This document shows positions 9,768 to 28,134 of a stretch of 64,000 nt of DNA, in pieces (position 1 is the stretch's first letter; the number at the start of each line of letters is the position of its first letter). The notes beneath the pieces were generated by a model. It was given only the letters and a program-made list of their open reading frames with translations, was not told where the DNA came from and made no database searches. The stretch spans positions 21,372-85,371 of the forward strand of contig SUVA01000003.1 of assembly GCA_015062245.1 (NCBI GenBank), written 5' to 3'. A program made the position numbers and the translations under genes. Origin of the DNA: Alphaproteobacteria bacterium. Lineage in GTDB: Bacteria; Pseudomonadota; Alphaproteobacteria; CAAHEQ01; UBA3637.

Positions 9768-12700
9768 ATGTCTAAAACAAAGATGTTAGATGCAAACGAA
9801 GCCGCCGCTGCGGTGGCTTATAAGCTGAATGAAATGTCTATCATTTATCCGATTACCCCGTCTTCACCGATGGGTGAATGGGCCGATGCTTGGGCAGCCG
9901 GTAAGCAAACAAATATCTGGGGAAAAGTTCCGGAAGTATTGGAAATGCAATCTGAGGCCGGTGCTATTGGTGCCGTTCATGGTGCTTTGCAGGCTGGTTC
10001 TATGACCACAACATATACAGCTTCTCAGGGCTTGTTGTTGATGATTCCCAATATGTATAAAATTGCCGGTGAATTGATGCCGTTTGTGATGCATGTGGCC
10101 GCCCGTACAGTTGCCGGTCATGCTTTGTCCATCTTTGGTGATCATTCTGACGTGATGGCCTGTCGTCAAACAGGTTTTGCCATGTTGGCTTCCAATTCAG
10201 TTCAAGAAGCCCATGATATGGCTGCCGTGGCCCAAATGTCCACTTATTTATCACGCATTCCTTTTTTGCATTTCTTTGATGGTTTCCGTACATCTCATGA
10301 AATCAATAAAATCAATATGATGAGTGATGATGATTTGCGTGCTTTAATGGCCGATATCCCGACAGATTTTACCGGTAAAAACGCTTTGACACCGGATAAT
10401 CCTTCCGTACGTGGTACAGCTCAAAACCCGGATGTGTTCTTCCAAATTAAGGAAGCTGCCAATAAGTATTATCAAGCTTGCCCTGAAATTGTTGAAAAAT
10501 GTATGCGTAAGTTTGAACAAGTTATTGGTCGTTCTTATCATATTGTGGAATATTTTGGTGCACAAGATGCCGAACACGTTGTTGTGGCTATGGGTTCAGG
10601 TATTGAAACATTACAAGAAACAGTTAAAGCTTTGAATGCCAATGGTGGAAAATATGGTGTTGTGGCGGTTCGTTTGTATCGTCCTTTCCCATCCAAAGCT
10701 TTTGTGGATGCCTTGCCCGCTACTGTTAAATATATCACCGTTTTGGATAGAACAAAAGAAGCCGGCTCTGTTGGTGAACCGTTGTATTTGGATGTTGTTT
10801 CTGCATTGGCCGAAGCTGCTGTCAATGGTCATGTTATGCCAAAAGTTTTGGGCGGTCGTTATGGTATTTCTTCAAAAGAATTTACACCCGCAATGGCCAA
10901 GGCTGTTTTTGAAAACAAAGAAAAGAATCACTTTACCGTTGGTATCAATGATGACGTAACTCACGCATCTTTGGCTTATGATGCCACCTTTAATACAGAA
11001 GGTGATGATGTCAGCCGTTGTATTTTCTTTGGTTTGGGTTCCGATGGTACAGTGGGTGCCAATAAAAACTCAATCAAAATTATTGCAGATAATGATGATA
11101 CATATGGTCAGGCTTATTTCGTGTACGATTCCAAAAAATCAGGTGCGATGACAACATCTCACTTGCGTTTTGGTAAAAATCCGATTAAAGCCCCTTATTT
11201 AATTACATCTGCCAATTTTGTGGCCTGTCACCATGAACCATTCTTGCATAAGATTGATTTGTTGGCTGTTGCTGCCCCGAAATCAGTGTTTTTGTTGAAT
11301 ACACAAACACCCATTGAACACGTTTGGGATAGTTTGCCACAAGAAGTACAACAGGAAATCATTGCCAAAGAAATTAAGATGTATGCTATTGATGCTGTGG
11401 CCGTTGCCCAAAAAACAGGCATGGGTCGTCGTATCAATACAATTATGCAGGCTTGTTTCTTTGCTATTTCCGGTGTTTTACCCAAAGATGTGGCTATTGA
11501 AAAGATTAAAGCGGCCATTACGAAAACATATATGCGTAAAGGTCAGGAAGTTGTTGATGCCAATATCAAAGCGGTTGATGCCACTTTGGATCATTTGCAT
11601 GAAGTTCAAATCGGTCAAGCCAATTCAACCATTCGCCGTCAACCCGGTATTCCGGCTTATGCCCCTGAATTGTTGCAAAAAGTAACCGGTGCCATTATTG
11701 AAGGCCGTGGTGAAGAATTACCTGTCTCAGCCTTTGAATGGACAGTTGATGGTAAATGGCCAACCGATACGGCAAAATATGAAAAACGTCGTGTGGCAAC
11801 ACAAATTCCGTGCTGGGATCCTGAAACATGTATCCAATGTGGTAAATGTATTTCAGTGTGTCCGCATGCCGCTATCCGTGCCAAAGTGGCAAAAGCCGAA
11901 GCCTTAGCAAATGCACCGGCCGGCTTTAAGTCTGCTGATTACAAAACAGCTGAATTTAAAGGTGATAAGTTTGTGATTCAAGTGGCACCGGAAGATTGCA
12001 CAGGATGTACTTTGTGTACTCAGGTTTGTCCGATGAAGGCCAAAAACACATTGGTAATGGAACCGGTTGAAAAGAATTTGGATAAAGAAATCAAAAACTT
12101 TGATTTCTTTGAAAAATTGCCGGATGCCGATCGTTCAAAATTGAACACAAAGATGATTAAGAGCGTGGCCTTAATGCGTCCGTTGTTTGAATTCTCGGGT
12201 GCTTGTGCCGGTTGTGGTGAAACACCATATGTTAAAATGATGACACAATTGTTTGGTGATCGTTTGTTGGTTGCCAATGCCACAGGTTGTTCGTCTATTT
12301 ATGGTGGCAACTTGCCAACAACACCATATGCCAAAAACAAAGATGGACGTGGTCCGGCTTGGGCAAACTCTTTGTTTGAAGATAATGCTGAATTTGGTTT
12401 GGGTATGCGTACTTCCGTTGATTCCAAAACAGAATTTGCCATTCAATTGTTGTCTGAATTAAAAGACAGCATCGGTGTTGAATTGGTGGATGCCATTTTG
12501 AATGCTGACCAAACAACAGAACAGGGTATTGCCGAACAACGTGCCCGTGTTGCCTCTTTAAAAGAAAAATTGGCAGGTTTGTCTGGTGAAAAAGTTAAAT
12601 TACTTGTTGAACATGCCGATTACTTGGTCAAAAAATCCGTTTGGATTTTGGGCGGTGACGGTTGGGCCTATGATATCGGCTACGGTGGATTGGACCACGC

Positions 12701-13277
12701 CTTGTATTCAGGTAAAAACGTGAATATCATGGTGATGGATACGGAAGTGTATTCCAACACCGGCGGACAACGTTCCAAAGCCACACCGATTGGTGCCAGT
12801 GCCAAATTTGCCGTTTCGGGCAGTTCTTTGCCCCGTAAAGACTTGGGCGCTATTGCCATGAGTTCGGGTGAAGTTTATGTGGCCAGTATTGCCTTGGGTG
12901 CTAATGATATGCAGGCTTTGAAAGCTATGAATGAAGCTGAATCCTTTAACGGACCAAGTTTGATTATTGCTTACAGCCATTGTATCAACCATGGTTATGA
13001 TATCGGTAAAGATGGATTGAACCATCAACAAATGGCTGTCAAGTCAGGTTTGTGGCCTCTTTATCGCTTTGACCCGCGTTTGAAAGCAGAAGGTAAAAAT
13101 CCGTTCCAATTGGATTCTAAACCTTCCATTCCTGTGGCTGACTTTATGGCAACAGAAACACGCTTTAAGTATGTGAAACAACAAAACGCAGAAAATTACG
13201 AAAAGTTGTTGAAACAGGCTCAAGCGCAAGTGGATGAACGTTGGGCGTTCTATACAAAACTTGCCGAAGGCAAATAA
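9768..13277 (+). CDS. nifJ: Pyruvate:ferredoxin (flavodoxin) oxidoreductase, single-polypeptide type (1169 aa)
   Basis: Fused PFOR domains; two 4Fe-4S motifs (CIQCGKCISVCP, CTGCTLCTQVCP); TPP-binding GGDGWAYDIGYGGLDH; size typical of NifJ/PorA-type enzyme. Confidence 0.9.
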   Translation: MSKTKMLDANEAAAAVAYKLNEMSIIYPITPSSPMGEWADAWAAGKQTNIWGKVPEVLEMQSEAGAIGAVHGALQAGSMTTTYTASQGLLLMIPNMYKIAGELMPFVMHVAARTVAGHALSIFGDHSDVMACRQTGFAMLASNSVQEAHDMAAVAQMSTYLSRIPFLHFFDGFRTSHEINKINMMSDDDLRALMADIPTDFTGKNALTPDNPSVRGTAQNPDVFFQIKEAANKYYQACPEIVEKCMRKFEQVIGRSYHIVEYFGAQDAEHVVVAMGSGIETLQETVKALNANGGKYGVVAVRLYRPFPSKAFVDALPATVKYITVLDRTKEAGSVGEPLYLDVVSALAEAAVNGHVMPKVLGGRYGISSKEFTPAMAKAVFENKEKNHFTVGINDDVTHASLAYDATFNTEGDDVSRCIFFGLGSDGTVGANKNSIKIIADNDDTYGQAYFVYDSKKSGAMTTSHLRFGKNPIKAPYLITSANFVACHHEPFLHKIDLLAVAAPKSVFLLNTQTPIEHVWDSLPQEVQQEIIAKEIKMYAIDAVAVAQKTGMGRRINTIMQACFFAISGVLPKDVAIEKIKAAITKTYMRKGQEVVDANIKAVDATLDHLHEVQIGQANSTIRRQPGIPAYAPELLQKVTGAIIEGRGEELPVSAFEWTVDGKWPTDTAKYEKRRVATQIPCWDPETCIQCGKCISVCPHAAIRAKVAKAEALANAPAGFKSADYKTAEFKGDKFVIQVAPEDCTGCTLCTQVCPMKAKNTLVMEPVEKNLDKEIKNFDFFEKLPDADRSKLNTKMIKSVALMRPLFEFSGACAGCGETPYVKMMTQLFGDRLLVANATGCSSIYGGNLPTTPYAKNKDGRGPAWANSLFEDNAEFGLGMRTSVDSKTEFAIQLLSELKDSIGVELVDAILNADQTTEQGIAEQRARVASLKEKLAGLSGEKVKLLVEHADYLVKKSVWILGGDGWAYDIGYGGLDHALYSGKNVNIMVMDTEVYSNTGGQRSKATPIGASAKFAVSGSSLPRKDLGAIAMSSGEVYVASIALGANDMQALKAMNEAESFNGPSLIIAYSHCINHGYDIGKDGLNHQQMAVKSGLWPLYRFDPRLKAEGKNPFQLDSKPSIPVADFMATETRFKYVKQQNAENYEKLLKQAQAQVDERWAFYTKLAEGK

Positions 13278-18728: not shown

Positions 18729-19919
18729 TTATGGATCCCGACAAATGGCGGAGTTGTTGAGGTAGCCACTGTAGCGAGAGTCGTCGAGGACAGCACCGCT
18801 GTTGTGGGAGACAAAACGCGTGCCACAGGAACCTGACTTGCTATTATCCGCTAGCCAAAGACTACCAGATTCTCCAAAGACATCTGTACTTCTAATCGCT
18901 ACATTTGTGGCCGAACAATCACTATCTGATCCGCCATTGCAAATACAAGGTTTCGTTGCGTAATTTGAGTGTGAACTGTTAAAATAACAGTGTGTATTCG
19001 TGCCACTGTCCGCCAGCCCTAAATCAGACATAGTCACAAGTTGTTTGCCATGCGCTTGACACAGGTTGGACGCACTCCACCAGTTCATTGTGCCTGAACT
19101 CTTATACACCGTTAAAGCACCACCGGGCAGGTTGAGGGTTTTGACCGTAAAATCATTTGTATCATCCAATTCTCCCTTATCCGTACACGTTCCCGTCCCC
19201 GGATTCGTACAACTACCATCACTGAACTTGCAGTATTTTGTCGTATCCACATTGCCTTCGGCATCCTTACAATCGCCGTTCTGGGTACACCCACTCGTTG
19301 GTTTGGCGCAGATGTATGTTGAGGTATTCGTCCCCTTTGCACAATACGTCCCTTCGGCGCAACATTCTGTCCCGCACATAAAGACACCGTTCGGACATTT
19401 GCATTCGCCGTGGAAACACTTTAGTCCGTCATCACATGTTACATTCTTACAGGCTGGGTCAAACTTTCCCCCTGTTGGGCTTTTTTCGCCTTCGGCCTCT
19501 GTGGTTGCCAAGTTTTTGTAATAAGTGATGGTAGCATTGCCTGATTCATCACAAACAACATCACGCACCATACCGCCTTTGGAATTTTTCATTTGTGTGC
19601 AAACATCTTTATCAATGCCCGATAGTGTTAAATTAAATTGAGTGCCGTTATCGGTAAGAGTGGTTGCATAGCCTGAGTTGGCAAAATCGGTGATTGTTGA
19701 TGGTAATTTCCCGTCATTGGTCATGGCATAAGCCGACACCGTTGTTGCCATCATGGATGCTTTATGCAAGGCCTCATTGGCTTTGTGTTTTTCCACCGCT
19801 TTGGAATAGGCCGATATGCCACCAACACTCAACACGCCCACAATGGCCAGCACGCCCAGCATTTCAACCATACTGCGCCCCTTTTGACTTCTTTTATCAT
19901 TTTTGTTTGTTTTATTCAT
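18729..19919 (-). CDS. Type IV pilin-like N-terminus fused to Cys-rich EGF-like repeats and a C-type-lectin-like C-terminal domain (396 aa); candidate adhesin
   Basis: Class-III signal-like N-terminus QKG|RSMVEMLGVLAIVGVLSVGGISAY with Glu at +5 and a hydrophobic helix; central CxxGxC repeats (CDDGLKCFHGECKCPNGVFMCGTECCAEGTYC); C-terminal WWSASNLCQAHGKQLVTMSDL resembles a CTLD start. Confidence 0.5.
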   Translation of the reverse strand: MNKTNKNDKRSQKGRSMVEMLGVLAIVGVLSVGGISAYSKAVEKHKANEALHKASMMATTVSAYAMTNDGKLPSTITDFANSGYATTLTDNGTQFNLTLSGIDKDVCTQMKNSKGGMVRDVVCDESGNATITYYKNLATTEAEGEKSPTGGKFDPACKNVTCDDGLKCFHGECKCPNGVFMCGTECCAEGTYCAKGTNTSTYICAKPTSGCTQNGDCKDAEGNVDTTKYCKFSDGSCTNPGTGTCTDKGELDDTNDFTVKTLNLPGGALTVYKSSGTMNWWSASNLCQAHGKQLVTMSDLGLADSGTNTHCYFNSSHSNYATKPCICNGGSDSDCSATNVAIRSTDVFGESGSLWLADNSKSGSCGTRFVSHNSGAVLDDSRYSGYLNNSAICRDP

Positions 19920-20140: not shown

Positions 20141-20170
20141 TAAATTTTTTTTGCAAGTAAAAAATATGCT

Positions 20171-20199
20171 TGACATTATAAAATCATTTGTGTAAAATA
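20171..20199 (+). promoter_or_regulatory. Near-consensus sigma70 promoter (TTGACA-17-TAAAAT) immediately upstream of the tRNA-His 5' remnant (probable native tRNA-His promoter)
   Basis: ttgacattataaaatcatttgtgtaaaat read directly; it drives only the truncated tRNA fragment at 20216. Confidence 0.4.
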
Positions 20200-20209
20200 T
20201 AAACTATTC

Positions 20210-20256
20210 ACCAGATGGCGGATGTAGCTCAGTTGGTTAGAGCGCTGGTTTGTGGT
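20210..20256 (+). repeat. Distal attachment-site repeat: 47-nt exact copy of the 5' half of tRNA-His (leader through anticodon loop)
   Basis: accagatggcggatgtagctcagttggttagagcgctggtttgtggt is identical to 27809-27855; the sequences diverge right after the anticodon GTG. Confidence 0.7.
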
Positions 20257-20619
20257 TCCGCTTTTCAACTTCCAAATTTTCTGATAAACACCGCATAAAA
20301 GACAAGAGCAGAATTCTTGTATTGAATTTGTTATAAGTCCTGTCATTATTGTTCTATCTTGAAATTTGAATGAATGGAAAGGTATCTTTTGGGCGCTTAA
20401 ATTTTGGAAATTCAGAACGCCTAAAAGCTCAAACCTCATTTTCTATCCCTAAACTCTCCCTAAACGATGGAATAATCACTTTTGTAAATGGGAAAAAGGA
20501 CTTTTTTCTTTGGCATTTACATTAGCCTCATTAGCCGCATTTGCCCCTTACATTAATATTATGCCCGAAATTTTTGAAAATGTCAAAAGAAATTAAGGGG
20601 TTATTTAAAAATAAACGCG

Positions 20620-21108
20620 TTATTTTTCACGAAATGATAGCATAAAATCCAAATTTCTTTTTGTAATCCAAAAAGAAAAAAGTAATCCTAAGAATGAAAT
20701 AAGTGCATAATAGGAAGAGATAACTAAACATACTTTCCATTCTGTTGTGGAAAACAAAAAGGCAAAAATTATTGATAGTAAGCAGGTCATAATTGTCCAT
20801 GATAGAAAATTGAGTAAATTTTTCAATGGTCGATATTGTTCTTTTTTCCAGCCATCTTTGTATTCTGATTTTAAGTAATTGGTGTAATCTTCTTTATCAT
20901 ATAATTTTTCTTTCATATGTGGTATTAGGAAACTTTGCATTGTAAATAAGATGGAGGCAATAGCAAAATATGCAGAAATCCAACTTCCTGTTCCATTAGG
21001 ATCTTTTGGAACTAATGGAATGAGGGTCAATACAAAAGATAATTCCTTTACTTTGAAAGAAATAACCAAAGGAATAATAAAAGTAAATATTGTAAAAAAT
21101 ACCTTCAT
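20620..21108 (-). CDS. Small integral membrane protein (162 aa, ~4 TM), island cargo
   Basis: Four hydrophobic segments (FFTIFTFIIPLVISF, ISAYFAIASILFTMQSFLI, LSWTIMTCLLSIIFAFLF, LVISSYYALISFLGLLFSFWI); 3 nt downstream of the 292-aa gene. Confidence 0.5.
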   Translation of the reverse strand: MKVFFTIFTFIIPLVISFKVKELSFVLTLIPLVPKDPNGTGSWISAYFAIASILFTMQSFLIPHMKEKLYDKEDYTNYLKSEYKDGWKKEQYRPLKNLLNFLSWTIMTCLLSIIFAFLFSTTEWKVCLVISSYYALISFLGLLFSFWITKRNLDFMLSFREK

Positions 21109-21111
21109 TTT

Positions 21112-21990
21112 CTAAATAATCCCTAAATCTCTACAGATAACATTTGATTTTACAAAATCTAACATATGAACAATAGTTGGATGGGTACTTAACTCTTCTG
21201 TATTAAATTTTTTTAATTCCCGTGTTACGTCATCGTAATCATAAGATGTTAATGGCCTAAAAATATTGTCTAAATTTATAACTTCCCTTTCTCCTTCTTC
21301 ATTTTTCCCAACCACTTTCAATTTTTTAGTACCTAATTCTTTTAAGTCAAGAATTTTAGGGATTATATCAGATAAAGGAGCCTTCCTTTTAAAAATTATT
21401 TGTTTTTGTTCGGATTTTACAAAATCAGGAGTAAAAATAGAACGTTTTGTAGATTGCTCTAAATACGATATTGAAGTGATTGAAAAAAACCTATTCAATG
21501 CCATAGAAGCTTCTTCAGCCTTTATTATTTGGATGCAAGAAATCTTATTTTTTCTCTTAAAGCTCAGTGACGAGCTGTCGTAGCCTTTTAGTGAAACAAA
21601 ATCATCAAAAAACTTTCTTAAAATTTTTTCTAACACAGATAATGAAGCAGAATTAGCATATGTCAACCATATCCCTGATGTAGTATTTTTATTCAAAATG
21701 AAAAAGTTGTATTCCGCACCATCTTTGATTTCGGCTATTTCTGTAGAATATCCCCCATTAGGATTTACTACTACTCTGCAATGTGCTGAGTAGTCTCGAG
21801 AAGAAAAAAGTAGTCCGGCGTAATAAGAGGAGGAAGCAACTGGTTGAATAAAAAGATTTCTCTTTTTTTTACAGATATCAATTGGTCCTTCTTTTTGAGA
21901 AGTTATATAATCAAAAAGATCTGAAATGGAAAAATCGATATCTTTTTGCTTTTTTAAAATAATTTTAAAGGGATATGCGTTTATATTCAT
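21112..21990 (-). CDS. Hypothetical cytoplasmic protein (292 aa), island cargo, no recognisable domain
   Basis: Long ORF co-directional with and between the XRE gene and the membrane-protein gene; composition typical of the element (very AT-rich, Lys/Ser/Phe-rich). Confidence 0.45.
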   Translation of the reverse strand: MNINAYPFKIILKKQKDIDFSISDLFDYITSQKEGPIDICKKKRNLFIQPVASSSYYAGLLFSSRDYSAHCRVVVNPNGGYSTEIAEIKDGAEYNFFILNKNTTSGIWLTYANSASLSVLEKILRKFFDDFVSLKGYDSSSLSFKRKNKISCIQIIKAEEASMALNRFFSITSISYLEQSTKRSIFTPDFVKSEQKQIIFKRKAPLSDIIPKILDLKELGTKKLKVVGKNEEGEREVINLDNIFRPLTSYDYDDVTRELKKFNTEELSTHPTIVHMLDFVKSNVICRDLGII

Positions 21991-22050
21991 CTAAGACTCC
22001 AAAAAAAACTGTACTATTTATAGCAGAATTTTAAGAAAAAATCAAATTGT

Positions 22051-22389
22051 TTATTTCATTTCCAAAAGGGCCTCAATCTGTTTAAGGGCGGTTTTGAGTG
22101 TCTTTTCATCCTGTCCTTCTAATAATCGGGTAATAGTCTTTAATGTGTCTGAATGTGGTTTGTTCTGTGTGGATATATCAGTCAATAAATCTTGAACGGG
22201 GACATTGAGTGCGTTAGCAAAGGAAAGAAGTGTTGTAATTTTGGGGTCACTGAGTCCACGTTCTACATTTGAAATGGTATTTATCATTTTACCGGATACT
22301 TCGGCAAATTCCTCTTGTGAAAGTCTTTTTTGTTTGCGTAAAACGGCAATACGTTTACCAAGCGTTTGTAAAAATACTTTATTTGTCAT
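22051..22389 (-). CDS. XRE-family HTH transcriptional regulator (Cro/cI-like)
   Basis: LRKQKRLSQEEFAEVSGKMINTISNVERGLSDPKITTLLSFANALNVPVQDLL = classic HTH_XRE; start placed at MTNKVFLQ (the upstream in-frame extension lacks an RBS). Confidence 0.7.
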   Translation of the reverse strand: MTNKVFLQTLGKRIAVLRKQKRLSQEEFAEVSGKMINTISNVERGLSDPKITTLLSFANALNVPVQDLLTDISTQNKPHSDTLKTITRLLEGQDEKTLKTALKQIEALLEMK

Positions 22390-22465
22390 AATACCTCTTT
22401 TGTTATGGTAGTATTTTCCTATTTTGCTGTGTAAAAGACCATAACGGTAAAATGTGTATTTTGGC

Positions 22466-22494
22466 TTGACATTTCTAAAAATACATATTATACT
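22466..22494 (+). promoter_or_regulatory. Sigma70 promoter (TTGACA-17-TATACT) for the PD-(D/E)xK-like gene
   Basis: cttgacatttctaaaaatacatattatact read directly. Confidence 0.45.
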
Positions 22495-22519
22495 GTGTTT
22501 ATTGATTACAATAAACACA
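22494..22519. promoter_or_regulatory. Perfect 11-4-11 palindromic operator (TGTGTTTATTG-atta-CAATAAACACA) between -10 and RBS
   Basis: Exact inverted repeat read directly; positioned to block transcription; the divergent XRE repressor is the obvious candidate binder. Confidence 0.45.
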
Positions 22520-22531
22520 TGGGAGTATGAA

Positions 22532-23467
22532 ATGAACGGTCCAAACATCTTCGATTATGCTACCAGTGAGCTCTCTCAAGATGCTTTTTTGTGTTATCTG
22601 TTAGCCTTTGGAAAAGAAAAATATAAAATGGATTTTCCGAAAGAGTATATGCTTGCTCATAAGTTTCTTGCAAAATGTGGTATTGATGAAAAAGAGGAAA
22701 TATTGTCCGTTGGACAACAGGTGGAACATATTGATGTTTTAATTATTACAACTTCCCACATTCTTATTATTGAAGATAAAACTTATACTGATGAACATGA
22801 TGATCAAATAATTCGTTATGTGAAAAATATGAGGAAATCTGAAGAAAAATTTTTAAATGATAAAAAAATTAAGGTATGTTTTTTAAAAACAGGCGATTAT
22901 GTTAAATCCTATTCTTCAAGTGATGAAAGTGTTTTACAAAATAAAGATTGTTGTTCTTTAAGACGTAAAAATTTATTGGAATTACTAAAGGATTATTATA
23001 AGTGTAATTTAGTATTTGAAATGTTTTATAAACGACTTCTTTCCGTTGAAGAAGCTATAGAACAATGTGATAGTGAAAATATATTTGATTGGAATCGCTA
23101 TAAATGGTTCGATTTCCTTTATAATACTTTAATTGAGAAAAAGAAAGTTTTTGACATAAAATGGGTTCATAATCCTAATGGCGGTTTTTATGGTTGTTGG
23201 TTTGGTTCTCATAAACTAGGAGAAATTGAGAAGTATAAACAAATTGAAATTCATTTCAATGAAAAGGGAACAGAATTTGTAGATTTGTGCTTAAAATGTT
23301 CATCTGAAAGTAAAGAGAAAACTCAGAAATATAAATCAGATATGGAAAAGTGGCAAAAGGAATCTGGTTTTAATCGTCCTGATCGTTGGCGTATTGGTCG
23401 GACAACAACCTATGCCACAAAACAAGCAATCAATGTTCGGGATATTCAAAACTTTATCAAAAAATAA
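22532..23467 (+). CDS. PD-(D/E)xK nuclease-like protein (312 aa), island cargo
   Basis: E...D...E-x-K arrangement (SELSQDAF ... HIDVLIITTSHILIIEDKTY) with the hydrophobic-strand context typical of restriction-endonuclease-fold nucleases; GGGAG RBS 6 nt before the ATG. Confidence 0.4.
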   Translation: MNGPNIFDYATSELSQDAFLCYLLAFGKEKYKMDFPKEYMLAHKFLAKCGIDEKEEILSVGQQVEHIDVLIITTSHILIIEDKTYTDEHDDQIIRYVKNMRKSEEKFLNDKKIKVCFLKTGDYVKSYSSSDESVLQNKDCCSLRRKNLLELLKDYYKCNLVFEMFYKRLLSVEEAIEQCDSENIFDWNRYKWFDFLYNTLIEKKKVFDIKWVHNPNGGFYGCWFGSHKLGEIEKYKQIEIHFNEKGTEFVDLCLKCSSESKEKTQKYKSDMEKWQKESGFNRPDRWRIGRTTTYATKQAINVRDIQNFIKK

Positions 23468-23496
23468 CAACTGAAAGGAAAGGAAGATGGCAAAAG

Positions 23497-23616
23497 TATA
23501 TGTAACACAGTATGATTATCAAGCAGATTTAAAAGTTTATAAAGTACAAAATGACTATCAGGCAAAATGGCAAACAAGCAATCCTTTTATTAGTCGATTA
23601 GGATAATATAACTCAT
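23497..23616 (+). CDS. Small ORF (39 aa, MAKVYVTQYDYQADLKVYKVQNDYQAKWQTSNPFISRLG) with strong RBS
   Basis: aggaaaggaag RBS then ATG; below the ORF-track cutoff; followed by a terminator. Confidence 0.25.
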
Positions 23617-23652
23617 AATAAGGCATGTCTTTGACTTTGAAAAAAATTTTAA

Positions 23653-23688
23653 AGGATAGGGCGGAAAAACTCCGCCCTTTTTCTTTCT
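23653..23688. terminator. Bidirectional terminator (gggcggaaaaactccgccc flanked by T-runs) between convergent island genes
   Basis: Read directly. Confidence 0.45.
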
Positions 23689-25925
23689 TACACGGAATCA
23701 AAAACTTCTGGATTTACTATATAAAGTGTTTTTTGACGACCCCTTGATTCCCCTGGTCGAGATATTTTTTTAGTTTTTAACCATCCATATTTTATCAAAA
23801 TAGAGGTTGCTTTTTCCGCTTGTTCCTTTCGCCGAATTCCAGGAACAACTGCGTTGTAATAGATATCCCTTAAGGTAAAGCTCTCAATTTTGTTGTTTAA
23901 GATATATTGAGCTAATTTTCTGGCTTCTTGCTGATATTCTGGCGCCATATAAATTCCATAAACACGTTTTGCCATAGGAAATAAGTACTGTTCATAAAAA
24001 TTTATAGCAGTATTAAGAGCATTTAACCCAATGAAATCAGGCTCTGGATTTTCGCTATCTGCCCACCATAAATATTCAAACATCAAACTTAAACGAACAA
24101 CAACACCCTGTCCTTTATTCAAGAAAAAACCCAATTTTTCATCTTCCCGTTCAATCGCTTGTGCAAAATGGACGTGTTTTAAGTACCACTGATTAAACAT
24201 TTCCTGAGCCTCATCAGAAAATTTTAATTGCTTTTTGGGATTCTCAGCATTATCCCCATAAGGATTGACTAAATTGAATAATTTTTTAAGTGCACGGAAC
24301 ACTTTTTCGTTATTCGGAGCTACTTTGGGGATAGCAGGGGCTACAACCTCTGGATAAGCCCAAAGAAAACGAGGGACAAGCCCGTCTTCGGCGTTACCCA
24401 AAAAGGCGTCTATGACCCTTTTAGGCTGGATAGTGCCAAAAATTGAAATAAGCAAATGTGGTACTTCAATTCTATCTTCCCCAAATTTTACACGATCGGA
24501 AGAATAATATTTACCATTATAGGTTTCAAGCCAAAAACTTTTTTCAGCGTTGCCACTGGTGTATCGATTCATTCCTGCTAACCATCCATACAGCTCGTCT
24601 CGAAAAACGATTGCCCCAGTTGTATTGTTTTGTAAGTTTTGAAGAAGTGCTTCCTGCGTTGTATCACAAAAACAAAAACGATATGATTGTGGTTTTGGAG
24701 GCTTATTCAAATTATCGGGAATCGTTTGTTTTTTATCTGGATTTTTTTTGATATCCTTATACCAGTTCTTTAACTTTTTTTCATAAGCTATATTTTCACC
24801 TTTCCAAACGTTATAAGCCCTCTCAAACTCTGGCTTACGTGATTTTTCCAAATCACATAAAATGCTTTTTATAGGACTGATAGTCGGCGTTTTTCTTGAG
24901 CTCGGATCTCCAACAATTCCCATAAAAAAACAGGGGTATTCTACAAAACCAGGCCATGGGGAAAGGCTGCGGGCTAATCCCATACAGGCACCCGTTGCTG
25001 CTATTAAAGAAAATCCAACATAGTCAACTGCTGCATTACAACTGGCAGCTGTTTCCACTACCCATTCTTCCATAGTTTGAAAACAATCGGTTTTCATCCT
25101 TGGAGCAGGTTCAATAATTTTTTCCTTTAAAATGGATAAATCAAGTTCTTGGAAATCTGGATTATCCAAGGTTTCAGAAAAAGAGATTGAATTTTCTAAT
25201 GTTCTTTCTACTTCTTCAATTTCAAGTCCACTTTGTAAAGCTGACTTAATAATTTTGTTATATATATTTGCCATATTTAAACTCCTTTCTTTGGCAAGTT
25301 GTTGGATGCGAATTGATTTTCGCAAAAGTGTATCATTGCGTTTACCCTCTGGGGCATTTGAAATGTCTTCCAAAAGTGCTGATATATCGTTAATTCTGGC
25401 GTTTTTGCCTGTTATAATTTCTAGCAACCATTCAGGCGCTTCTGGAAAAGTTAAATCATTAGGATTTACATTTTCCCAATGATATTGGTTACCGTTTTCA
25501 TGAACGGAAAAGGGGGCAACAATATATCCCCCGTCTGCACGTATATCAATATGCGGGGCAATTTTACTGGCGCTTGACCTAATAGTTATATTTTCGGGGT
25601 ATTTAAAATAAAGGTGTTTTCCTCGCCCTGTTAAAACGGCTGGGGCATTTAATTTACCATACTCTTTTTCCAAAAGTTGAAGTGATTCAAATCCTTCTTG
25701 TTCGTCAATATCAACTACGAAAATACCATTTTCTTCCCCAGTTGGGAGACCAATATTACAAGGGGAAAATTTTTCACTCCATTCCGTTATTTGTTTTAAG
25801 TCTGTTGTGGCTCCCTTAAAACCTGTTTTAATAAGGGGAGCCTTTCCACGATATTTCACGGGGAAGACTTTCATATTTAACCGAACATATTGTTTGGCGA
25901 TGTTATAAAAGTTGTTTTCAATCAT
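23688..25925 (-). CDS. Bifunctional DNA primase/polymerase (AEP Prim-Pol N-terminal domain) with C-terminal P4-alpha-like/DUF3987-type region; element replication protein
   Basis: VVDIDEQEGFESLQLLEKEYGKLNAPAVLTGRGKHLYFKYPENITIRSSASKIAPHIDIRADGGYIVAPFSVHENGNQYHWEN matches the Prim-Pol signature (lDiD...tpsGGrHlyf...G.DvRgdGGYvvaPpSvh.sG..Y.w); 745 aa. Confidence 0.75.
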   Translation of the reverse strand: MIENNFYNIAKQYVRLNMKVFPVKYRGKAPLIKTGFKGATTDLKQITEWSEKFSPCNIGLPTGEENGIFVVDIDEQEGFESLQLLEKEYGKLNAPAVLTGRGKHLYFKYPENITIRSSASKIAPHIDIRADGGYIVAPFSVHENGNQYHWENVNPNDLTFPEAPEWLLEIITGKNARINDISALLEDISNAPEGKRNDTLLRKSIRIQQLAKERSLNMANIYNKIIKSALQSGLEIEEVERTLENSISFSETLDNPDFQELDLSILKEKIIEPAPRMKTDCFQTMEEWVVETAASCNAAVDYVGFSLIAATGACMGLARSLSPWPGFVEYPCFFMGIVGDPSSRKTPTISPIKSILCDLEKSRKPEFERAYNVWKGENIAYEKKLKNWYKDIKKNPDKKQTIPDNLNKPPKPQSYRFCFCDTTQEALLQNLQNNTTGAIVFRDELYGWLAGMNRYTSGNAEKSFWLETYNGKYYSSDRVKFGEDRIEVPHLLISIFGTIQPKRVIDAFLGNAEDGLVPRFLWAYPEVVAPAIPKVAPNNEKVFRALKKLFNLVNPYGDNAENPKKQLKFSDEAQEMFNQWYLKHVHFAQAIEREDEKLGFFLNKGQGVVVRLSLMFEYLWWADSENPEPDFIGLNALNTAINFYEQYLFPMAKRVYGIYMAPEYQQEARKLAQYILNNKIESFTLRDIYYNAVVPGIRRKEQAEKATSILIKYGWLKTKKISRPGESRGRQKTLYIVNPEVFDSV

Positions 25926-25951
25926 TTTTTATCCTTTCATTTAGATTGAAT

Positions 25952-26365
25952 TTATTCTTCACAATTAAAAAGTCTATCCAAATAGCTACAAGCTGCTTCA
26001 ATGGTGTAATATACTTTTTTGTTTACACACACGTATTGGGAATGATCATCTCTTGTAATAACTCCTTCCAGCATAGAATCTTTATTTCGTAAAGTATTGC
26101 AATTTAGAAATCCGCAAACTTCACAGAATTTTGTTCTTGCGATTGTTTCACCATATGTCTTGATTTTTGCCTTTAATTTGTATAACAAATTTGGGCTGAT
26201 ATAATTTTTGATCATTTTAAAGACCTTTGTTTTTAGGTTATGGGGATCCCAGATTAAAACCACTGTTTTTCTGTTCCCACCTAAAAACGCAGCAAATCTT
26301 ATTTTCACCTTTTTATTTTTATTTATTTTATAAGTTTTTGATTTTAAATAATTATATCTAATCAT
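25952..26365 (-). CDS. Hypothetical Cys-containing protein (137 aa) between integrase and primase
   Basis: ORF only; CEVCGFLNC ... CVNKK ... C pattern suggests a zinc ribbon; start overlaps integrase stop. Confidence 0.35.
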   Translation of the reverse strand: MIRYNYLKSKTYKINKNKKVKIRFAAFLGGNRKTVVLIWDPHNLKTKVFKMIKNYISPNLLYKLKAKIKTYGETIARTKFCEVCGFLNCNTLRNKDSMLEGVITRDDHSQYVCVNKKVYYTIEAACSYLDRLFNCEE

Positions 26366-27542
26366 TTTCTGACTCCGAATTGAGCGTGCGAACAGCTTTA
26401 CGCAAAGAATTATTGGATAAATGTGAATATCTGAGGGTCATGGAAATATCAGAATGCCCTAAAAGTTCTTTAACCACAAAAATAGAATTTCCTTTTTCCA
26501 CAAGGCGACTTGCATACGTATGTCTTAATGTGTGAAAGACAACCTTTTGCCGTCTATCAGTGATTCCCTGATTGAGGCCCAATTTTTTCACGGCTCTTTC
26601 ATAAGTTCTTGATACATGTTCAATTTTTTTACCATTTCGGCTTGGAAAAAGGTGTTGATTTGTTTCTTTGTTTGGAAGTTTTGAAACTTCTTCAAAAACA
26701 CGATCTGTCATAAAGGCAAAACGGTTTTTCTTGTTTTTTGTATCTTTTAGAGTGAATTCTTTTTGATTCAAATTGACATCCGCCCAAGTCAGATTAAAAA
26801 TTTCTCCTGCTCGTAATCCACAGTCTGCCGAAATTAGAGCCATTAAATATACTTCATAGCTTCTCTTTTTAAGTTCTGTAAATAGAGCTTCCAATTCTTC
26901 AGCTGTTAAATAGCGTATGCGCCGATTGTCTTCTTTTTTACATTTTATTTTTGACGCAGGATTTTCCAAGCCAAAGTATAAATTTTCTTTTTTTGCAAAA
27001 TTGAACACTTGGCGCATAAGGGCAATCGCATAATTTTGACTTCGGACAGATAGTTGTTGATCTGCCATTATATTTTGCACCCTAATGAGGCTATTGCGGC
27101 TTATTTTTTCTAAGGGTAAAGAGCCAAAATAAGGTTCAAGCCATTTTTTAAATAAAACAAGCTCTCTATCATTTGTACTCTTTTTATGATATATTTGGCA
27201 ATAAGGCATATAACAAAGAGAAAAGATTTCCCTAAAAGTTTTGCTTTGAATACAATTCCTCTTATTACGTTCAAGAAGTTCATTGTTTTTCTTTTGTTGT
27301 TGTTGGGCTATTTCTTTTAAAGAGAATGCTGTACCAGCTTTTATACGTTGTTTTAAATCCCCTAATATATGATAAGCCTTTTCAGCTGTCCAACCCAGCG
27401 ATTTAAAACCAATCGGTTCTTCGTATTGTTTACCATTAACAGTATAGCGGATTGAAAAATAAATATCTTTCTTTCCTTGAGAGACACATTCTCTTTTTCT
27501 TACCCCTGGAAAATTTTTTGTCATTTTTACACTTCCTTTCAT
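26358..27542 (-). CDS. int: Tyrosine-type site-specific integrase
   Basis: Catalytic region HTLRHTYASRLVEKGNSIFVVKELLGHSDISMTLRYSHL (R...HxxR...Y); N-terminal SAM-like/arm-binding region; lies 270 nt from tRNA-His, reading away from it. Confidence 0.85.
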   Translation of the reverse strand: MKGSVKMTKNFPGVRKRECVSQGKKDIYFSIRYTVNGKQYEEPIGFKSLGWTAEKAYHILGDLKQRIKAGTAFSLKEIAQQQQKKNNELLERNKRNCIQSKTFREIFSLCYMPYCQIYHKKSTNDRELVLFKKWLEPYFGSLPLEKISRNSLIRVQNIMADQQLSVRSQNYAIALMRQVFNFAKKENLYFGLENPASKIKCKKEDNRRIRYLTAEELEALFTELKKRSYEVYLMALISADCGLRAGEIFNLTWADVNLNQKEFTLKDTKNKKNRFAFMTDRVFEEVSKLPNKETNQHLFPSRNGKKIEHVSRTYERAVKKLGLNQGITDRRQKVVFHTLRHTYASRLVEKGNSIFVVKELLGHSDISMTLRYSHLSNNSLRKAVRTLNSESEND

Positions 27543-27769
27543 GTGTTTTTTTGTTTGACAAAATTATCCCATATTTAAGAGAGAAAAACACGTCACTCAA
27601 TGCGTCACTCAGCGTTTTTCGTAAGTAATACATAACAAGTTTGATAAATATTTTAGGACAGCTTAATTTTTTAATCCCTAAATACCCCCTAAATTTTTGA
27701 GAATACATTTTAAAAATCTTCAAAAATAAAGGAAAATAGGTTTGAGAGGATAAAAATAGATTTTTTACT

Positions 27770-27798
27770 TGACTTTTGGTAAAAAATCTGCGAAAATA
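27770..27798 (+). promoter_or_regulatory. Weaker promoter-like sequence (TTGACT-17-GAAAAT) driving the intact tRNA-His; sits inside the element side of the repeat
   Basis: acttgacttttggtaaaaaatctgcgaaaat read directly. Confidence 0.3.
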
Positions 27799-27815
27799 AG
27801 GCTTATCAACCAGAT

Positions 27816-27893
27816 GGCGGATGTAGCTCAGTTGGTTAGAGCGCTGGTTTGTGGTACCAGATGTCGTCGGTTCGAGTCCGATCTTCCGCCCCA
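27816..27893 (+). tRNA. tRNA-His (anticodon GTG) with G-1 and encoded CCA
   Basis: Cloverleaf folded by eye: G-1, acceptor GCGGATG/CTTCCGC, D-arm GTAGCTCAGTTGGTTAGAGC, anticodon loop TTGTGGT, T-arm GTCGG-TTCGAGT-CCGAT, discriminator C, CCA. Confidence 0.85.
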
Positions 27894-27912: not shown

Positions 27913-28134
27913 ATGGCAAAAGAGGAAGTATTGCAATTTACAGGTACCGTTGTGGAAGCTTTACCCAACGCAACTTTTCGTGTTCAATTGGAAAACGGTC
28001 ATGAAATTTTGGCGCATACCTCCGGAAAGATGCGTAAGTTCCGCATTCGTGTGATGGTTGGGGATAAGGTGGATATTGAAATGACCCCCTATGACCTGTC
28101 CAAAGGACGTATTTCTTTCAGACATAAAGCCTAA
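27913..28134 (+). CDS. infA: Translation initiation factor IF-1
   Basis: [73 protein letters not shown] matches IF-1 along its whole length; the track ORF's N-terminal extension across the tRNA is spurious. Confidence 0.9.

Follow-up and report, generated by a model that had tools for sequence, protein, structure and literature searches.

An alphaproteobacterial integrative element of 7.6 kb, with a probable replicase of its own, that brings the promoter and 5′ half of its tRNA-His target

Results

Insertion at tRNA-His

A DNA element of 7,599 bp lies at the tRNA-His gene of the window, by which we mean the whole 64-kb stretch of DNA analysed. The element is real, and it is quite probable that it is an integrative element with its own replicase, whose tyrosine integrase exchanges strands in the anticodon loop of tRNA-His. 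ARAGORN, in agreement with Rfam, located tRNA-His(GTG) at 27817-27893 on the forward strand, and the exact copy of its 5′ half that the earlier note had claimed 7.6 kb upstream was recovered as a 47-nt direct repeat (20210-20256 and 27809-27855, spacing 7,599 bp). Beginning with 7 nt of the leader, the repeat continues through G-1 and tRNA-His positions 1-38 and stops at the final base of the anticodon loop. The stem reads CTGGT here and the loop TTGTGGT; the next bases are ACCAG in the tRNA-His gene and TCCGC at the left copy. The element can equally be described as 20210-27808, as the crossover point within the repeat is unreadable from the sequence. Only these two copies exist in 64 kb, even with up to 3 mismatches, and none was found in 100 shuffles. 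A dispersed repeat family, the objection that the earlier note had raised against itself, was therefore rejected.

Empty sites were located with infA as the host marker. In relatives at 85-90% nucleotide identity, the left flank and native promoter are joined to an intact, identical tRNA-His gene and infA, as had been predicted. Two of these genomes (L001 and L008) share the left flank with the window (88.6-89.9% identity over about 490 bp, abutting the identical tRNA-His) and are collinear in the right flank for 5-10 kb; in the other two (L002 and L003) the native promoter and tRNA-His gene are present, but behind different left flanks. Because the empty sites show the native flank joined to tRNA-His, the promoter and 5′ half are supplied by the 7,599-bp insert, indicating that integration 5′ of the gene had been read correctly, with promoter and leader to be added to what the element brings. 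The empty-site genomes represent related species rather than the same strain. Every contig of the source strain, from several samples, is occupied by the element with 100% identity, and the search yielded no empty site within the species, so that present-day mobility is putative. The alternative that part of the tRNA gene was duplicated locally, next to core genes and with no insertion at all, draws on nothing beyond the repeat itself and has practically no chance of being correct, as it is refuted by the four empty sites, which lack exactly the inter-repeat interval. Moreover, this interval holds an integrase and a replicase, and its G+C content (0.27-0.39) is below that of the flanks (0.35-0.47).

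Integration by crossover in the anticodon loop, also proposed in the earlier note, was supported by comparison of the att layouts of relatives. Three layouts occur in gut Alphaproteobacteria, namely the tRNA-His 3′ half (L015 and L099), the tRNA-Trp 5′ half (at least 16 loci) and the promoter plus tRNA-His 5′ half (the window and L098). Overlap between the His 5′ and 3′ blocks is limited to the anticodon loop plus 3 stem bases, and since the three layouts have only the anticodon loop in common, crossover at this point is supported. Distant relatives use Lys, Asn, Ala, Arg and Val tRNAs, with a 3′ half that begins at positions 26-38 as att.

Sequence comparison shows that attP holds a diverged tRNA-His promoter together with an exact copy of leader, G-1 and positions 1-38, all of which lie on the stretch from int to the crossover point. 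On integration, the host promoter and 5′ half were cut off from their gene and stayed behind at the left junction, while an unchanged tRNA-His was rebuilt at the right junction from the element 5′ half and the host 3′ half. The distance from CTTGAC to the repeat is 41 nt for both the element-borne and the native promoter, and the same layout is found in L098, whose integrase is 75% identical to that of the element. tRNA-His would now be driven by the element promoter, and so, probably, would infA (19 nt downstream), which is probably co-transcribed with it.

Repair of a tRNA gene by an element's own promoter and 5′ half is an uncommon arrangement, but already known. Islands with a displaced 5′ tDNA fragment were described as having 'reversed target gene orientation' (Zhao & Williams 2002 J Bacteriol 184:859, as cited in PMC6563490), Islander contains 159 such cases among 3,919 islands (PMC4383910), and 5′-distal recombination is considered 'considerably less frequent' (PMC6563490). 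As in the present element, a tyrosine-integrase island precedes an intact tRNA gene in these cases, its far end is marked by a 5′ fragment, and the crossover is anticodon-centred. In contrast, the element places its promoter and 5′ half between int and the crossover point, and sister lineages of its integrase clade use the tRNA-His 3′ half or a flipped tRNA-Trp 5′ half.

Table 1. Features of the element and its junctions (window coordinates)
Feature	Position	Strand	Basis
Native tRNA-His promoter, TTGACA-17-TAAAAT, displaced to left junction	20170..20198	+	Promoter scan 11/12; same directly upstream of tRNA-His in L001, L002, L003, L008
attL core: displaced native leader (7 nt), G-1, positions 1-38	20210..20256	+	Exact repeat of 27809-27855; continuous with native left flank as in empty sites
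Inserted element, 7,599 bp	20257..27855	.	Absent from L001, L002, L003, L008; low G+C
Candidate arm-type integrase sites, TCCCTAAA x2, 11-bp spacing, cargo-side (P′) arm	20446..20464	+	Motif copies, relatives
Diverged family non-coding block, GGCTAATGAGGCTAATG, iteron-like; candidate origin or protein-binding site	20520..20549	-	Conserved in relatives
Outward promoter-like site, TTGACA-17-CATAAT	20558..20586	-	Promoter scan 11/12
RexB-like partner, 162-aa membrane protein, four hydrophobic segments	20620..21108	-	Hydropathy pattern resembles lambda RexB
RexA-like protein, 292 aa, cargo	21112..21990	-	Predicted structure
XRE/cI-like HTH repressor, 112 aa	22051..22389	-	PF01381 6.3e-14
Divergent promoter TTGACA-17-TATACT, then perfect 10-bp inverted repeat GTGTTTATTG-ATTA-CAATAAACAC	22466..22519	+	Promoter scan 11/12; repeat read from sequence
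PD-(D/E)XK nuclease family protein, 311 aa	22532..23467	+	PF14281 (PDDEXK_4) 1.5e-05; weak PADLOC match to PDC-S26
39-aa ORF, weak DUF6150/Septknot match	23487..23606	+	Terminator-like hairpin after, 23658-23678
Replicase of 745 aa, fusion of AEP primase-polymerase with DUF3987 helicase-like ATPase	23688..25925	-	PF09250 6.4e-39; PF13148 3.5e-54
137-aa protein, possible AlpA/excisionase-like winged helix	25952..26365	-	8-nt overlap with integrase stop codon
Tyrosine integrase, 388 aa from ATG with ribosome-binding site	26358..27524	-	PF00589 4.9e-33; phrog_1 3.9e-64
Two direct GAGTGACG copies in tandem, 49-68 nt upstream of int; candidate arm or regulator site	27591..27610	-	Only two exact copies in 64 kb
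Candidate arm-type sites, TCCCTAAA + CCCCTAAA, integrase-side (P) arm	27675..27693	+	Pairs with 20446..20464; conserved in L098
Element-borne promoter upstream of tRNA-His, TTGACT-17-GAAAAT, TG before	27769..27797	+	Promoter scan
attR core: element-derived leader, G-1, tRNA positions 1-38	27809..27855	+	Exact 47-nt repeat
Reconstituted tRNA-His(GTG), G-1 at 27816	27817..27893	+	ARAGORN, Rfam; 77 nt identical to gene of empty-site genomes
infA (IF-1), host gene	27913..28134	+	PF01176; starts 19 nt past tRNA-His

Genes and non-coding sites

The integrase, AEP primase-polymerase and XRE regulator that had been read in the interval all received domain matches, as did the PD-(D/E)XK protein (Table 1), and the seven main ORFs are intact. 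The longest integrase ORF extends to 27542, and the catalytic residues R238, K263, H331, R334, H357 and Y366 are invariant in 15 homologues. Homologues of the 137-aa protein stand at the same position in all relatives. It has no Pfam match, and its single-sequence AlphaFold2 model was unusable (pLDDT 40); the top PDB match of its conserved-domain profile is AlpA (8c3t_A, E 0.049, whole domain), and the protein is best called borderline AlpA-like. In the replicase, the AEP motifs D72-x-D74, G-K-H104 and I-D127 can be read from the translation, and DUF3987 has been demonstrated to be a 5′-3′ helicase (PMC11724360). No Pfam family above threshold was found for three ORFs of the interval.

The XRE repressor lacks an autocleavage domain and is encoded upstream of the RexA/RexB-like genes on the same strand; it is 55-62% identical in relatives, where variable cargo always comes next. 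Many relatives encode the PD-(D/E)XK protein at 49-61% identity, whereas others have a Septknot/DUF6150 gene in its place. The 292-aa cargo protein is RexA-like by its predicted structure only, and it has no PADLOC match. The 162-aa protein matches RexB weakly by BLASTP (E 0.006), yet at equivalent positions, and its gene recurs (38% identity) together with the 292-aa gene as a cassette in an unrelated element (L101/L102). The order resembles lambda cI-rexA-rexB (RexAB exclusion; PMC11077077), in which a repressor is followed on one strand by a RexA-fold protein of ~290 aa and a four-segment membrane protein of ~150 aa. Unlike in lambda, however, the repressor is a short XRE protein without the cleavage domain, sequence-level similarity to RexA was not detected in the 292-aa protein, exclusion is putative, and the setting is a 7.6-kb element, not a prophage.

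The origin, operators and arm sites of the element are candidates. Exact TCCCTAAA occurs 7 times in 64 kb, 6 of them within the element, and homologous GGTTTAGGGATA motifs are found in relatives at the position equivalent to 20446-20464. Ten related loci, among them the minimal variant described below, have the block GCTAATGAGGCTAAYGYRGCTAATG at their cargo end; a search for conserved RNA structure in it found none, and comparison of the non-coding motif with phage sequences gave no convincing counterpart, the single viral match being a chance CTAATGAGG repeat. The outward promoter-like site would read over attP to int in the circular form only; no strong promoter immediately upstream of int was predicted by the promoter scan. 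The inverted repeat behind the divergent promoter may be an operator, and in relatives other tandem repeats occupy the position equivalent to 27591..27610.

Discussion

Relation to satellites and other replicons

The P4-like/PICI-like satellite gene set that the earlier note had seen in the interval is matched only loosely. The integrase, possible AlpA-like protein, replicase and repressor are present, whereas Pfam/PHROG-level domain searches of the ORFs did not detect Psu, Sid, Delta, TerS, a capsid protein or any gene for capsid morphogenesis in the element. As these searches yielded neither capsid nor terminase nor hijacking genes, the membership tests fail, with at most 3 of 7 P4-like and at most 3 of 5 PICI markers, both below the published thresholds (SatelliteFinder definitions, PMC10085698), a negative cfPICI test, and 2 of the 4 PICMI markers missing (PMC10803314). 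Searches with integrase and primase returned no close relative of either in IMG/VR or the phage collection. P4-like satellites and PICIs resemble the element in size class, in the terminal position of the integrase and in having a regulator, a primase-replicase and a defence hotspot, but Psu, Delta, Sid, epsilon, TerS and capsid-morphogenesis genes are not shared. P4 alpha is a Toprim/D5-type primase-helicase, in contrast to the AEP PrimPol-DUF3987 protein of the element. PICMI of Vibrionaceae (~6-8 kb) likewise combine an integrase, a small int-overlapping gene, an AlpA-type regulator and a DUF3987 primase, without packaging or capsid gene and with protective cargo; however, they adjoin fis rather than lying in a tRNA gene, their AlpA matches PF05930/PF12728 whereas the element has a borderline PDB match only, and their helper phage is demonstrated (PMC10803314), while the element comes from another host group and has no known helper.

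That the element is a true phage satellite, minimalist and PICMI-like, induced and packaged by a helper phage without a packaging gene of its own, is a hypothesis we hold to be unlikely. Its 7.6-kb size and its int, possible AlpA-like gene overlapping int and DUF3987 primase match the PICMI core (PMC10803314), a repressor without autocleavage domain and defence cargo are also seen in P4-like satellites and PICIs, and 15-kb IMG/VR contigs (L127) carry distant int and PrimPol relatives beside large terminase, portal and major head protein; the missing packaging genes, viral relatives, phage motif counterpart and helper, and the marker counts below threshold, argue against it. An integrated plasmid-like replicon that spreads phage-free, e.g., by conjugative mobilisation, vesicles, gene transfer agents or transformation, is conceivable but doubtful, because no relaxase, oriT or coupling protein was detected in the element and free plasmid relatives cover at most 64% of the replicase at about 25% identity. 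Nevertheless, small, mostly non-mobilisable plasmids carry PrimPol/DUF3987 replicases, vesicles are enriched in comparable tRNA-targeting elements (tycheposons), and a published class of replicative mobile elements combines, next to a tRNA, an integrase, PrimPol, a DUF3987 helicase and defence cargo (PMC11724360). The latter, AgaPP/AgaPH, and tycheposons (bioRxiv 10.1101/2020.12.28.424599) share with our element a tyrosine recombinase, a primase-helicase module, exchangeable cargo and the use of tRNA genes, but the host group differs, and where AgaPP/AgaPH have integrase, PrimPol and PriCT-DUF3987 helicase, the element has PrimPol and DUF3987 fused and no Argonaute. Finally, a decayed or domesticated island, immobile, fixed in the lineage and retained because its tRNA promoter and defence genes are useful, would agree with the uniform occupation of all strain contigs and with one contig (L110) that may hold a 223-nt right-end remnant joined to unrelated DNA. 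We find this quite improbable, as the ORFs, catalytic residues and 47-nt repeats are all preserved, and relatives with exchanged cargo are integrated at two tRNA genes across many species, indicating ongoing mobility of the family.

Proposed life cycle and family

As an integrative element with its own replicase, it would be excised by Int and the overlapping AlpA-like 137-aa protein, and the circle would be replicated by PrimPol-DUF3987, possibly from the conserved iteron-like block close to its cargo end. Quiescence would be maintained by the XRE repressor, whose gene, in the lambda layout, may be co-transcribed with the RexA/RexB-like pair, which would exclude phages. More speculatively, since genes for transfer or packaging are missing from the element, movement between cells would probably depend on a helper, be it a phage, a conjugative element, vesicles or a gene transfer agent. 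Two metagenome scans gave no match to an excised circle or attP junction, but the known attL junction was also missed.

The family is found in many gut or rumen Alphaproteobacteria MAGs, and its backbone consists of int, a ~140-aa protein, PrimPol-DUF3987, PDDEXK_4 or Septknot, and XRE, followed by variable cargo. The host of the present element is an uncultured gut or rumen alphaproteobacterium. A minimal natural variant (L013) holds only int, a 148-aa protein, PrimPol, the non-coding block and the tRNA promoter plus half, and an MmeI-like type IIG restriction-modification enzyme is among the cargo of relatives.

Insertion of the element into tRNA-His

A repeat finder and direct reading of the sequence both confirmed the exact direct repeat of 47 nt, with its two copies on the same strand and 7,599 bp apart (see the table). 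The repeat consists of 7 bases of the leader, G-1 (encoded) and tRNA positions 1-38, and its end coincides with the final anticodon-loop base; there the gene has CTGGT-TTGTGGT-ACCAG, and the left copy continues with TCCGC. Only these two copies were found in the 64 kb even when up to 3 mismatches were allowed, and none was found in 100 shuffles, indicating that the repeat does not belong to a dispersed family, the alternative that the earlier note had set beside its claim of an exact repeat of the tRNA-His 5′ part. An Rfam scan gave no match besides the tRNA. The configuration is of the Islander type, because the island has an intact tDNA at one end and a directly oriented cognate fragment at the other, this fragment is from the 5′ part and situated 7.6 kb upstream of the tDNA, a tyrosine integrase gene is located inside the interval, and the uninterrupted target site is present in L001, L002, L003 and L008, genomes of related species with 85-90% nt identity.

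These empty sites were obtained by a look-up of contigs encoding exactly the infA product of the window, which returned loci both with and without the interval, including one contig identical to the window (L004). L001 and L008 have the left flank of the window, with its promoter TTGACA-17-TAAAAT, over approximately 490 bp at 88.6-89.9% identity. Directly after this flank comes an intact tRNA-His, all 77 nt of which match the window gene, and then infA and 5-10 kb of collinear DNA of 83-85% identity. L002 and L003 have the same promoter-tRNA-infA unit with other left flanks. The empty site that had been predicted, namely promoter, intact tRNA-His and infA, thus exists in four related genomes. 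Judged from this sequence comparison, the interval is an insertion, which can be delimited as 20257-27855 (7,599 bp) or equally as 20210-27808, and its G+C content is below that of the flanks.

Every same-strain contig retrieved carries the element at 100% identity, and a look-up with the 369-aa downstream protein for an empty site of the same strain gave only contigs with the right end of the element. When metagenome contigs were scanned, the attP junction had 0 matches. A control pattern common to attL and attP had 0 matches as well, though it is present in L004, a JGI contig; the scanned collection thus lacks this contig, and the negative result is uninformative. The 8-mer ACCAGATG occurs twice, in the tRNA-His leader (27809-27816) and directly past the anticodon loop (27856-27863), and does so likewise in the empty-site genomes. 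In attB, therefore, the other 39 nt of the 47-nt repeat (G-1 to position 38) lie between direct 8-mers.

Features of the element and its attachment sites (window positions)
Feature	Position	Strand	Remarks
attL core	20210-20256	+	47-nt repeat, left copy
Paired TCCCTAAA motif, left arm	20446-20464		
Conserved non-coding block, diverged	20520-20549		
162-aa membrane protein (RexB-like)	20620-21108	-	
292-aa protein (RexA-like)	21112-21990	-	
XRE repressor	22051-22389	-	
PDDEXK_4 nuclease	22532-23467	+	
39-aa DUF6150-like ORF		+	followed by a terminator-like hairpin
Replicase, 745 aa	23688-25925	-	AEP primase-polymerase (Prim-Pol, PF09250) fused to DUF3987 (PF13148)
137-aa ORF	25952-26365	-	8-nt overlap with the integrase stop codon
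Tyrosine integrase	26358-27524	-	PF00589, 4.9e-33; catalytic R, K, H-x-x-R, H, Y conserved
Paired TCCCTAAA motif, right arm	27675-27693		
attR core	27809-27855	+	47-nt repeat, right copy
tRNA-His(GTG)	27817-27893	+	ARAGORN; Rfam agrees
Predicted attP junction			...AAGGCTTATCA-ACCAGATGGCGG...TTTGTGGT-TCCGCTTTTCAAC
Predicted attB junction, allele of this strain			...AAACTATTC-ACCAGATGGCGG...TTTGTGGT-ACCAGATGTCG

Gene content and putative RexAB-like cargo

The DUF3987 part of the replicase belongs to a domain that has been demonstrated to be a 5′-3′ helicase (PMC11724360). Homologues of the 137-aa protein occupy the equivalent position in all the relatives and carry the motif I-S-R-x-x-L-C...N-T-L-R-N...G-I...Y-Y...Y-L; word-index and exhaustive phmmer searches gave only 2-4 true homologues. 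The domain profile of this family had as its top PDB match the AlpA-family regulator 8c3t_A (E 0.049), over the whole winged-helix domain. The protein had no Pfam match, PF05930 and PF12728 (AlpA) included, hhalign against one HTH_17 protein gave no match, and the single-sequence AlphaFold2 model was unusable (pLDDT 40). An AlpA-like nature of this protein would be a borderline assignment.

The 292-aa protein is predicted to have a RexA fold, with a split globular domain and a dimerisation domain, RdgC-like. The 162-aa protein, encoded immediately downstream, has four hydrophobic segments in a layout like that of lambda RexB according to hydropathy, and a weak BLASTP match with RexB (E 0.006) at equivalent positions. 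Repressor, RexA-like and RexB-like genes follow each other on one strand in the same order as lambda cI-rexA-rexB. A similar pair, with overlapping genes and 31% and 38% identity, recurs in L101/L102, an element that is unrelated and has another integrase. At the sequence level, no similarity of the 292-aa protein to RexA was found by hhalign (probability 0.3%), and the pair had no PADLOC match, so that a putative RexAB-type phage exclusion pair is assigned from predicted structure and gene architecture only. For the other genes, the PADLOC output was limited to generic HTH matches and, for the PDDEXK protein, weak matches to PDC-S26.

Probable replacement of the tRNA-His promoter

Upstream of the right repeat, the promoter scan detected TTGACT-17-GAAAAT with a TG extension, and the distance from CTTGAC to the repeat is 41 nt, equal to that of the native promoter. 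By sequence comparison, the attP of the element thus includes a diverged tRNA-His promoter together with the leader and 5′ half. Integration has left the host promoter and 5′ half stranded at attL, and the working gene at attR is a hybrid of the element 5′ half and the host 3′ half, which supports the integration model of the earlier note, where the element supplies the promoter and 5′ half of tRNA-His. The infA start is located 19 nt past the tRNA with only a ribosome-binding site between them, so that the element-borne promoter probably drives infA as well. At the left end, no terminator-like site was predicted on the + strand in 20170-20620, from the stranded native promoter (20170-20198) and truncated 5′ half up to the cargo genes, and this strong promoter may therefore read antisense through the RexB-like, RexA-like and XRE genes.

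In a 2.1-kb contig (L110, JGI 3300018494; positions 1-560), an unrelated TPR-like ORF is joined to window position 27633, so that of the element just the terminal 223 nt are left, with tRNA-His and infA next to them; two further contigs (L107 and L108) begin exactly at 27633. L110 is either a remnant variant with only the element promoter and 5′ half, or the product of a chimeric assembly or a graph break.

Attachment layouts and the proposed crossover site

When every locus was oriented by its integrase gene, three layouts were observed. In layout A the tRNA 3′ part, beginning at positions 26-38, is used and the displaced copy is 166 nt from the integrase gene; it is found with tRNA-Lys, -Asn, -Ala, -Arg and -Val in distant relatives (approximately 40% identity; Desulfobacterota and others) and with tRNA-His in L015 and L099. 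Layout B comprises at least 16 loci with the promoter and positions 1-41 of tRNA-Trp, where the tRNA is flipped relative to the integrase gene and the displaced native copy is 172-176 nt from it in most loci and 190-227 nt in three. Layout C, found in the window and L098, combines the promoter with tRNA-His positions 1-38; the orientation is that of layout A, but these sequences lie between the integrase gene and the crossover.

The 5′ and 3′ blocks of tRNA-His have in common only the anticodon loop and three stem bases. Provided that the integrases cut at the homologous place, the crossover would thus lie in the anticodon loop, as had been proposed for the window, which supports this part of the integration model; strand exchange would then fall within the 7-nt loop. 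In the anticodon-loop sublocation of att sites, reportedly described by Williams in 2002 (PMC1635311, PMC4383910), the identity block ends at the loop, with symmetric stem arms around it; the block of the window ends at the last loop base, and those of the relatives start or end at the anticodon stem-loop. In a neighbour-joining tree, drawn with no support values, the three att types were each monophyletic and the outgroups of the clade were all 3′-half users, implying at least two changes of polarity.

Recombination at the 5′ part is called "considerably less frequent" than at the 3′ part in a statement of PMC6563490 that cites Zhao & Williams 2002, and a 5′ fragment is found in 159 of the 3,919 islands in Islander (approximately 4%; PMC4383910), indicating that the 5′ polarity is uncommon but known. 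The present element is a clean and fully delimited case of these minority islands that replace the 5′ half and promoter of a tRNA, and both empty sites and sister elements of the usual polarity are at hand for comparison. The occurrence of three layouts in one integrase clade adds interest and makes it a usable system for the evolution of integration polarity and tRNA specificity around the symmetric anticodon stem-loop. The probable take-over of the tRNA-His/infA promoter and the lambda-like layout of the RexAB-like cassette add to the interest of the element.

At the tRNA-Trp-type loci (L011:9785-10001 and others), the integrase gene is approximately 175 nt from the displaced native promoter and 5′ half, which are directed into it, and is thus downstream of a tRNA promoter in the integrated and circular forms alike. 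In the window, in contrast, the integrase gene and the tRNA promoter diverge. In a Desulfarculus MAG (L040:9737-9846 and 19319-19428), a distant integrase relative lies between two full-length tRNA-Sec copies (110 nt identical), instead of a gene and a fragment.

Element family and conserved non-coding sites

Integrase homologues of 56-62% identity are numerous in MAGs of uncultured gut and rumen Alphaproteobacteria, and one relative reaches 75%. The family backbone consists of the integrase, the ~140-aa protein, PrimPol-DUF3987, PDDEXK_4 or Septknot, and XRE, followed by variable cargo, which is a 670-aa hypothetical protein, an MmeI-like type IIG restriction-modification enzyme or, in the window, the RexAB-like pair. 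The MmeI-like enzyme (962 aa; N6_Mtase, MmeI_Mtase, Eco57I) occupies the cargo slot of the His-3′ relatives (L015:16968-19856), suggesting that the slot after the XRE gene is a defence hotspot. Small replicase-bearing elements of uncultured gut Alphaproteobacteria are thus predicted to carry exchangeable anti-phage cargo. A natural 4.9-kb deletion variant of the tRNA-Trp type (L013:9785-14830) has only the integrase, a 148-aa protein, PrimPol, a conserved non-coding block and the tRNA promoter with the 5′ half, and provides a natural guide to the minimal function set.

All members have the conserved non-coding block (GCTAATGAGGCTAAYGYRGCTAATG and flanking conserved sequence) at their cargo end, the copy of the window being diverged. 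The block had no supported RNA structure (-4.4 kcal/mol, zero covariation), and we read it as a candidate site acting at the DNA level, namely a replication origin or a part of the integrase arm. A search for the motif in viral contigs gave a single match, a threefold CTAATGAGG repeat between tail genes of the viral contig L100, which was rejected as chance because no similarity extends beyond the CTAATGAGG repeat. The TCCCTAAA motifs are paired on both arms, and 6 of the 7 exact copies in the 64 kb are inside the element; the pairs are kept in L098 and have counterparts in other relatives.

Possible relationship to satellites

The earlier note regarded the gene set as that of P4-like or PICI-like satellites. 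The integrase, the replicase and the repressor agree loosely with this claim, while the family markers do not. P4-like satellites are defined in SatelliteFinder (PMC10085698) by at least 5 of the 7 markers int, psu, delta, sid, alpA, epsilon and alpha, of which 3 at most are present in the element. The 7 main ORFs gave no Pfam or PHROG match to the psu-delta-sid operon (capsid size, transactivation), and the alpha-type primase-helicase of P4-like satellites is absent, Prim-Pol with DUF3987 being its functional analogue and no homologue. For PICI, at least 4 of int, regulator, pri-rep, capsid morphogenesis and terS are needed (5 markers; PMC10085698); no small terminase or capsid-morphogenesis gene was detected with Pfam and PHROG, leaving at most 3 of 5. 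By the same searches, the cfPICI capsid, portal, head-tail adaptor and terL genes are absent from the element; among the relatives they were seen only in distant IMG/VR contigs of 15 kb such as L127. PICMI are marked by int, AlpA, a DUF3987/DUF5906 primase and a site next to fis, and rely on a helper phage for excision, packaging and transfer (PMC10803314). The element resembles them in having an integrase and a DUF3987 primase, but it is located in tRNA-His upstream of infA with no fis adjacency, and has no AlpA at the Pfam level, the 137-aa protein being a borderline candidate for it.

Searches of IMG/VR with the integrase and with PrimPol gave no close relatives; with the integrase alignment, only relatives of at most 41% identity were obtained, mostly on prophage-sized contigs. 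Annotated phage and plasmid collections likewise gave no close relative, only distant single-domain matches of at most 37% identity. Two IMG/VR contigs of approximately 15 kb (L127:1-11176 and L114) encode a distant integrase (37-38% identity) and a primase-helicase of the PrimPol type; next come genes for an ERCC4 nuclease, large terminase, portal and major head protein. They look like capsid-forming satellites or very small phages, and the distant integrase and PrimPol modules in L127 are a weak lead towards a satellite connection. As a replicative, cargo-carrying island, the element can also be likened to AgaPP elements and tycheposons. The element possibly works like a minimalist satellite; it is not assigned to any named satellite family, falls short in the satellite membership tests that could be run, and the satellite label is unproven.

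A wider reading, which we offer as speculative and on balance improbable as a whole, is that these elements form an as yet undescribed group of minimalist elements that depend on a helper (satellites or other hitchers) in uncultured gut and rumen Alphaproteobacteria, and that their anticodon-loop integrases switched the donated tRNA half at least twice. The 5′-half donors, because they carry their own promoter, would bring an essential tRNA, and here probably infA too, under transcription from it, and remnants, as L110 hints, could become fixed as a host promoter. If a helper phage exists, minimalist satellites would reach beyond Vibrionaceae.

Flanking host genes

Comparison of window 18729-19919 with L001:1854-9607 showed that approximately 6.3 kb of host genes present in L001 and L003 are missing from the window, namely RsmB, Pth, ribosomal protein L25, a two-component pair and a 144-aa ORF, none of which was found elsewhere in the 64 kb. 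In L001 and L003 this block is located between two paralogous Cys-rich proteins with pilin-like N termini, and the window has a single 396-aa copy. L002 has still another left flank (LexA, SufE). These differences indicate that the region upstream of tRNA-His is a synteny breakpoint independent of the element. Farther to the left, the window encodes a 1,646-aa ankyrin-repeat protein and pyruvate:ferredoxin oxidoreductase (465-5405 and 9768-13277), which fits an anaerobic, host-associated alphaproteobacterium.
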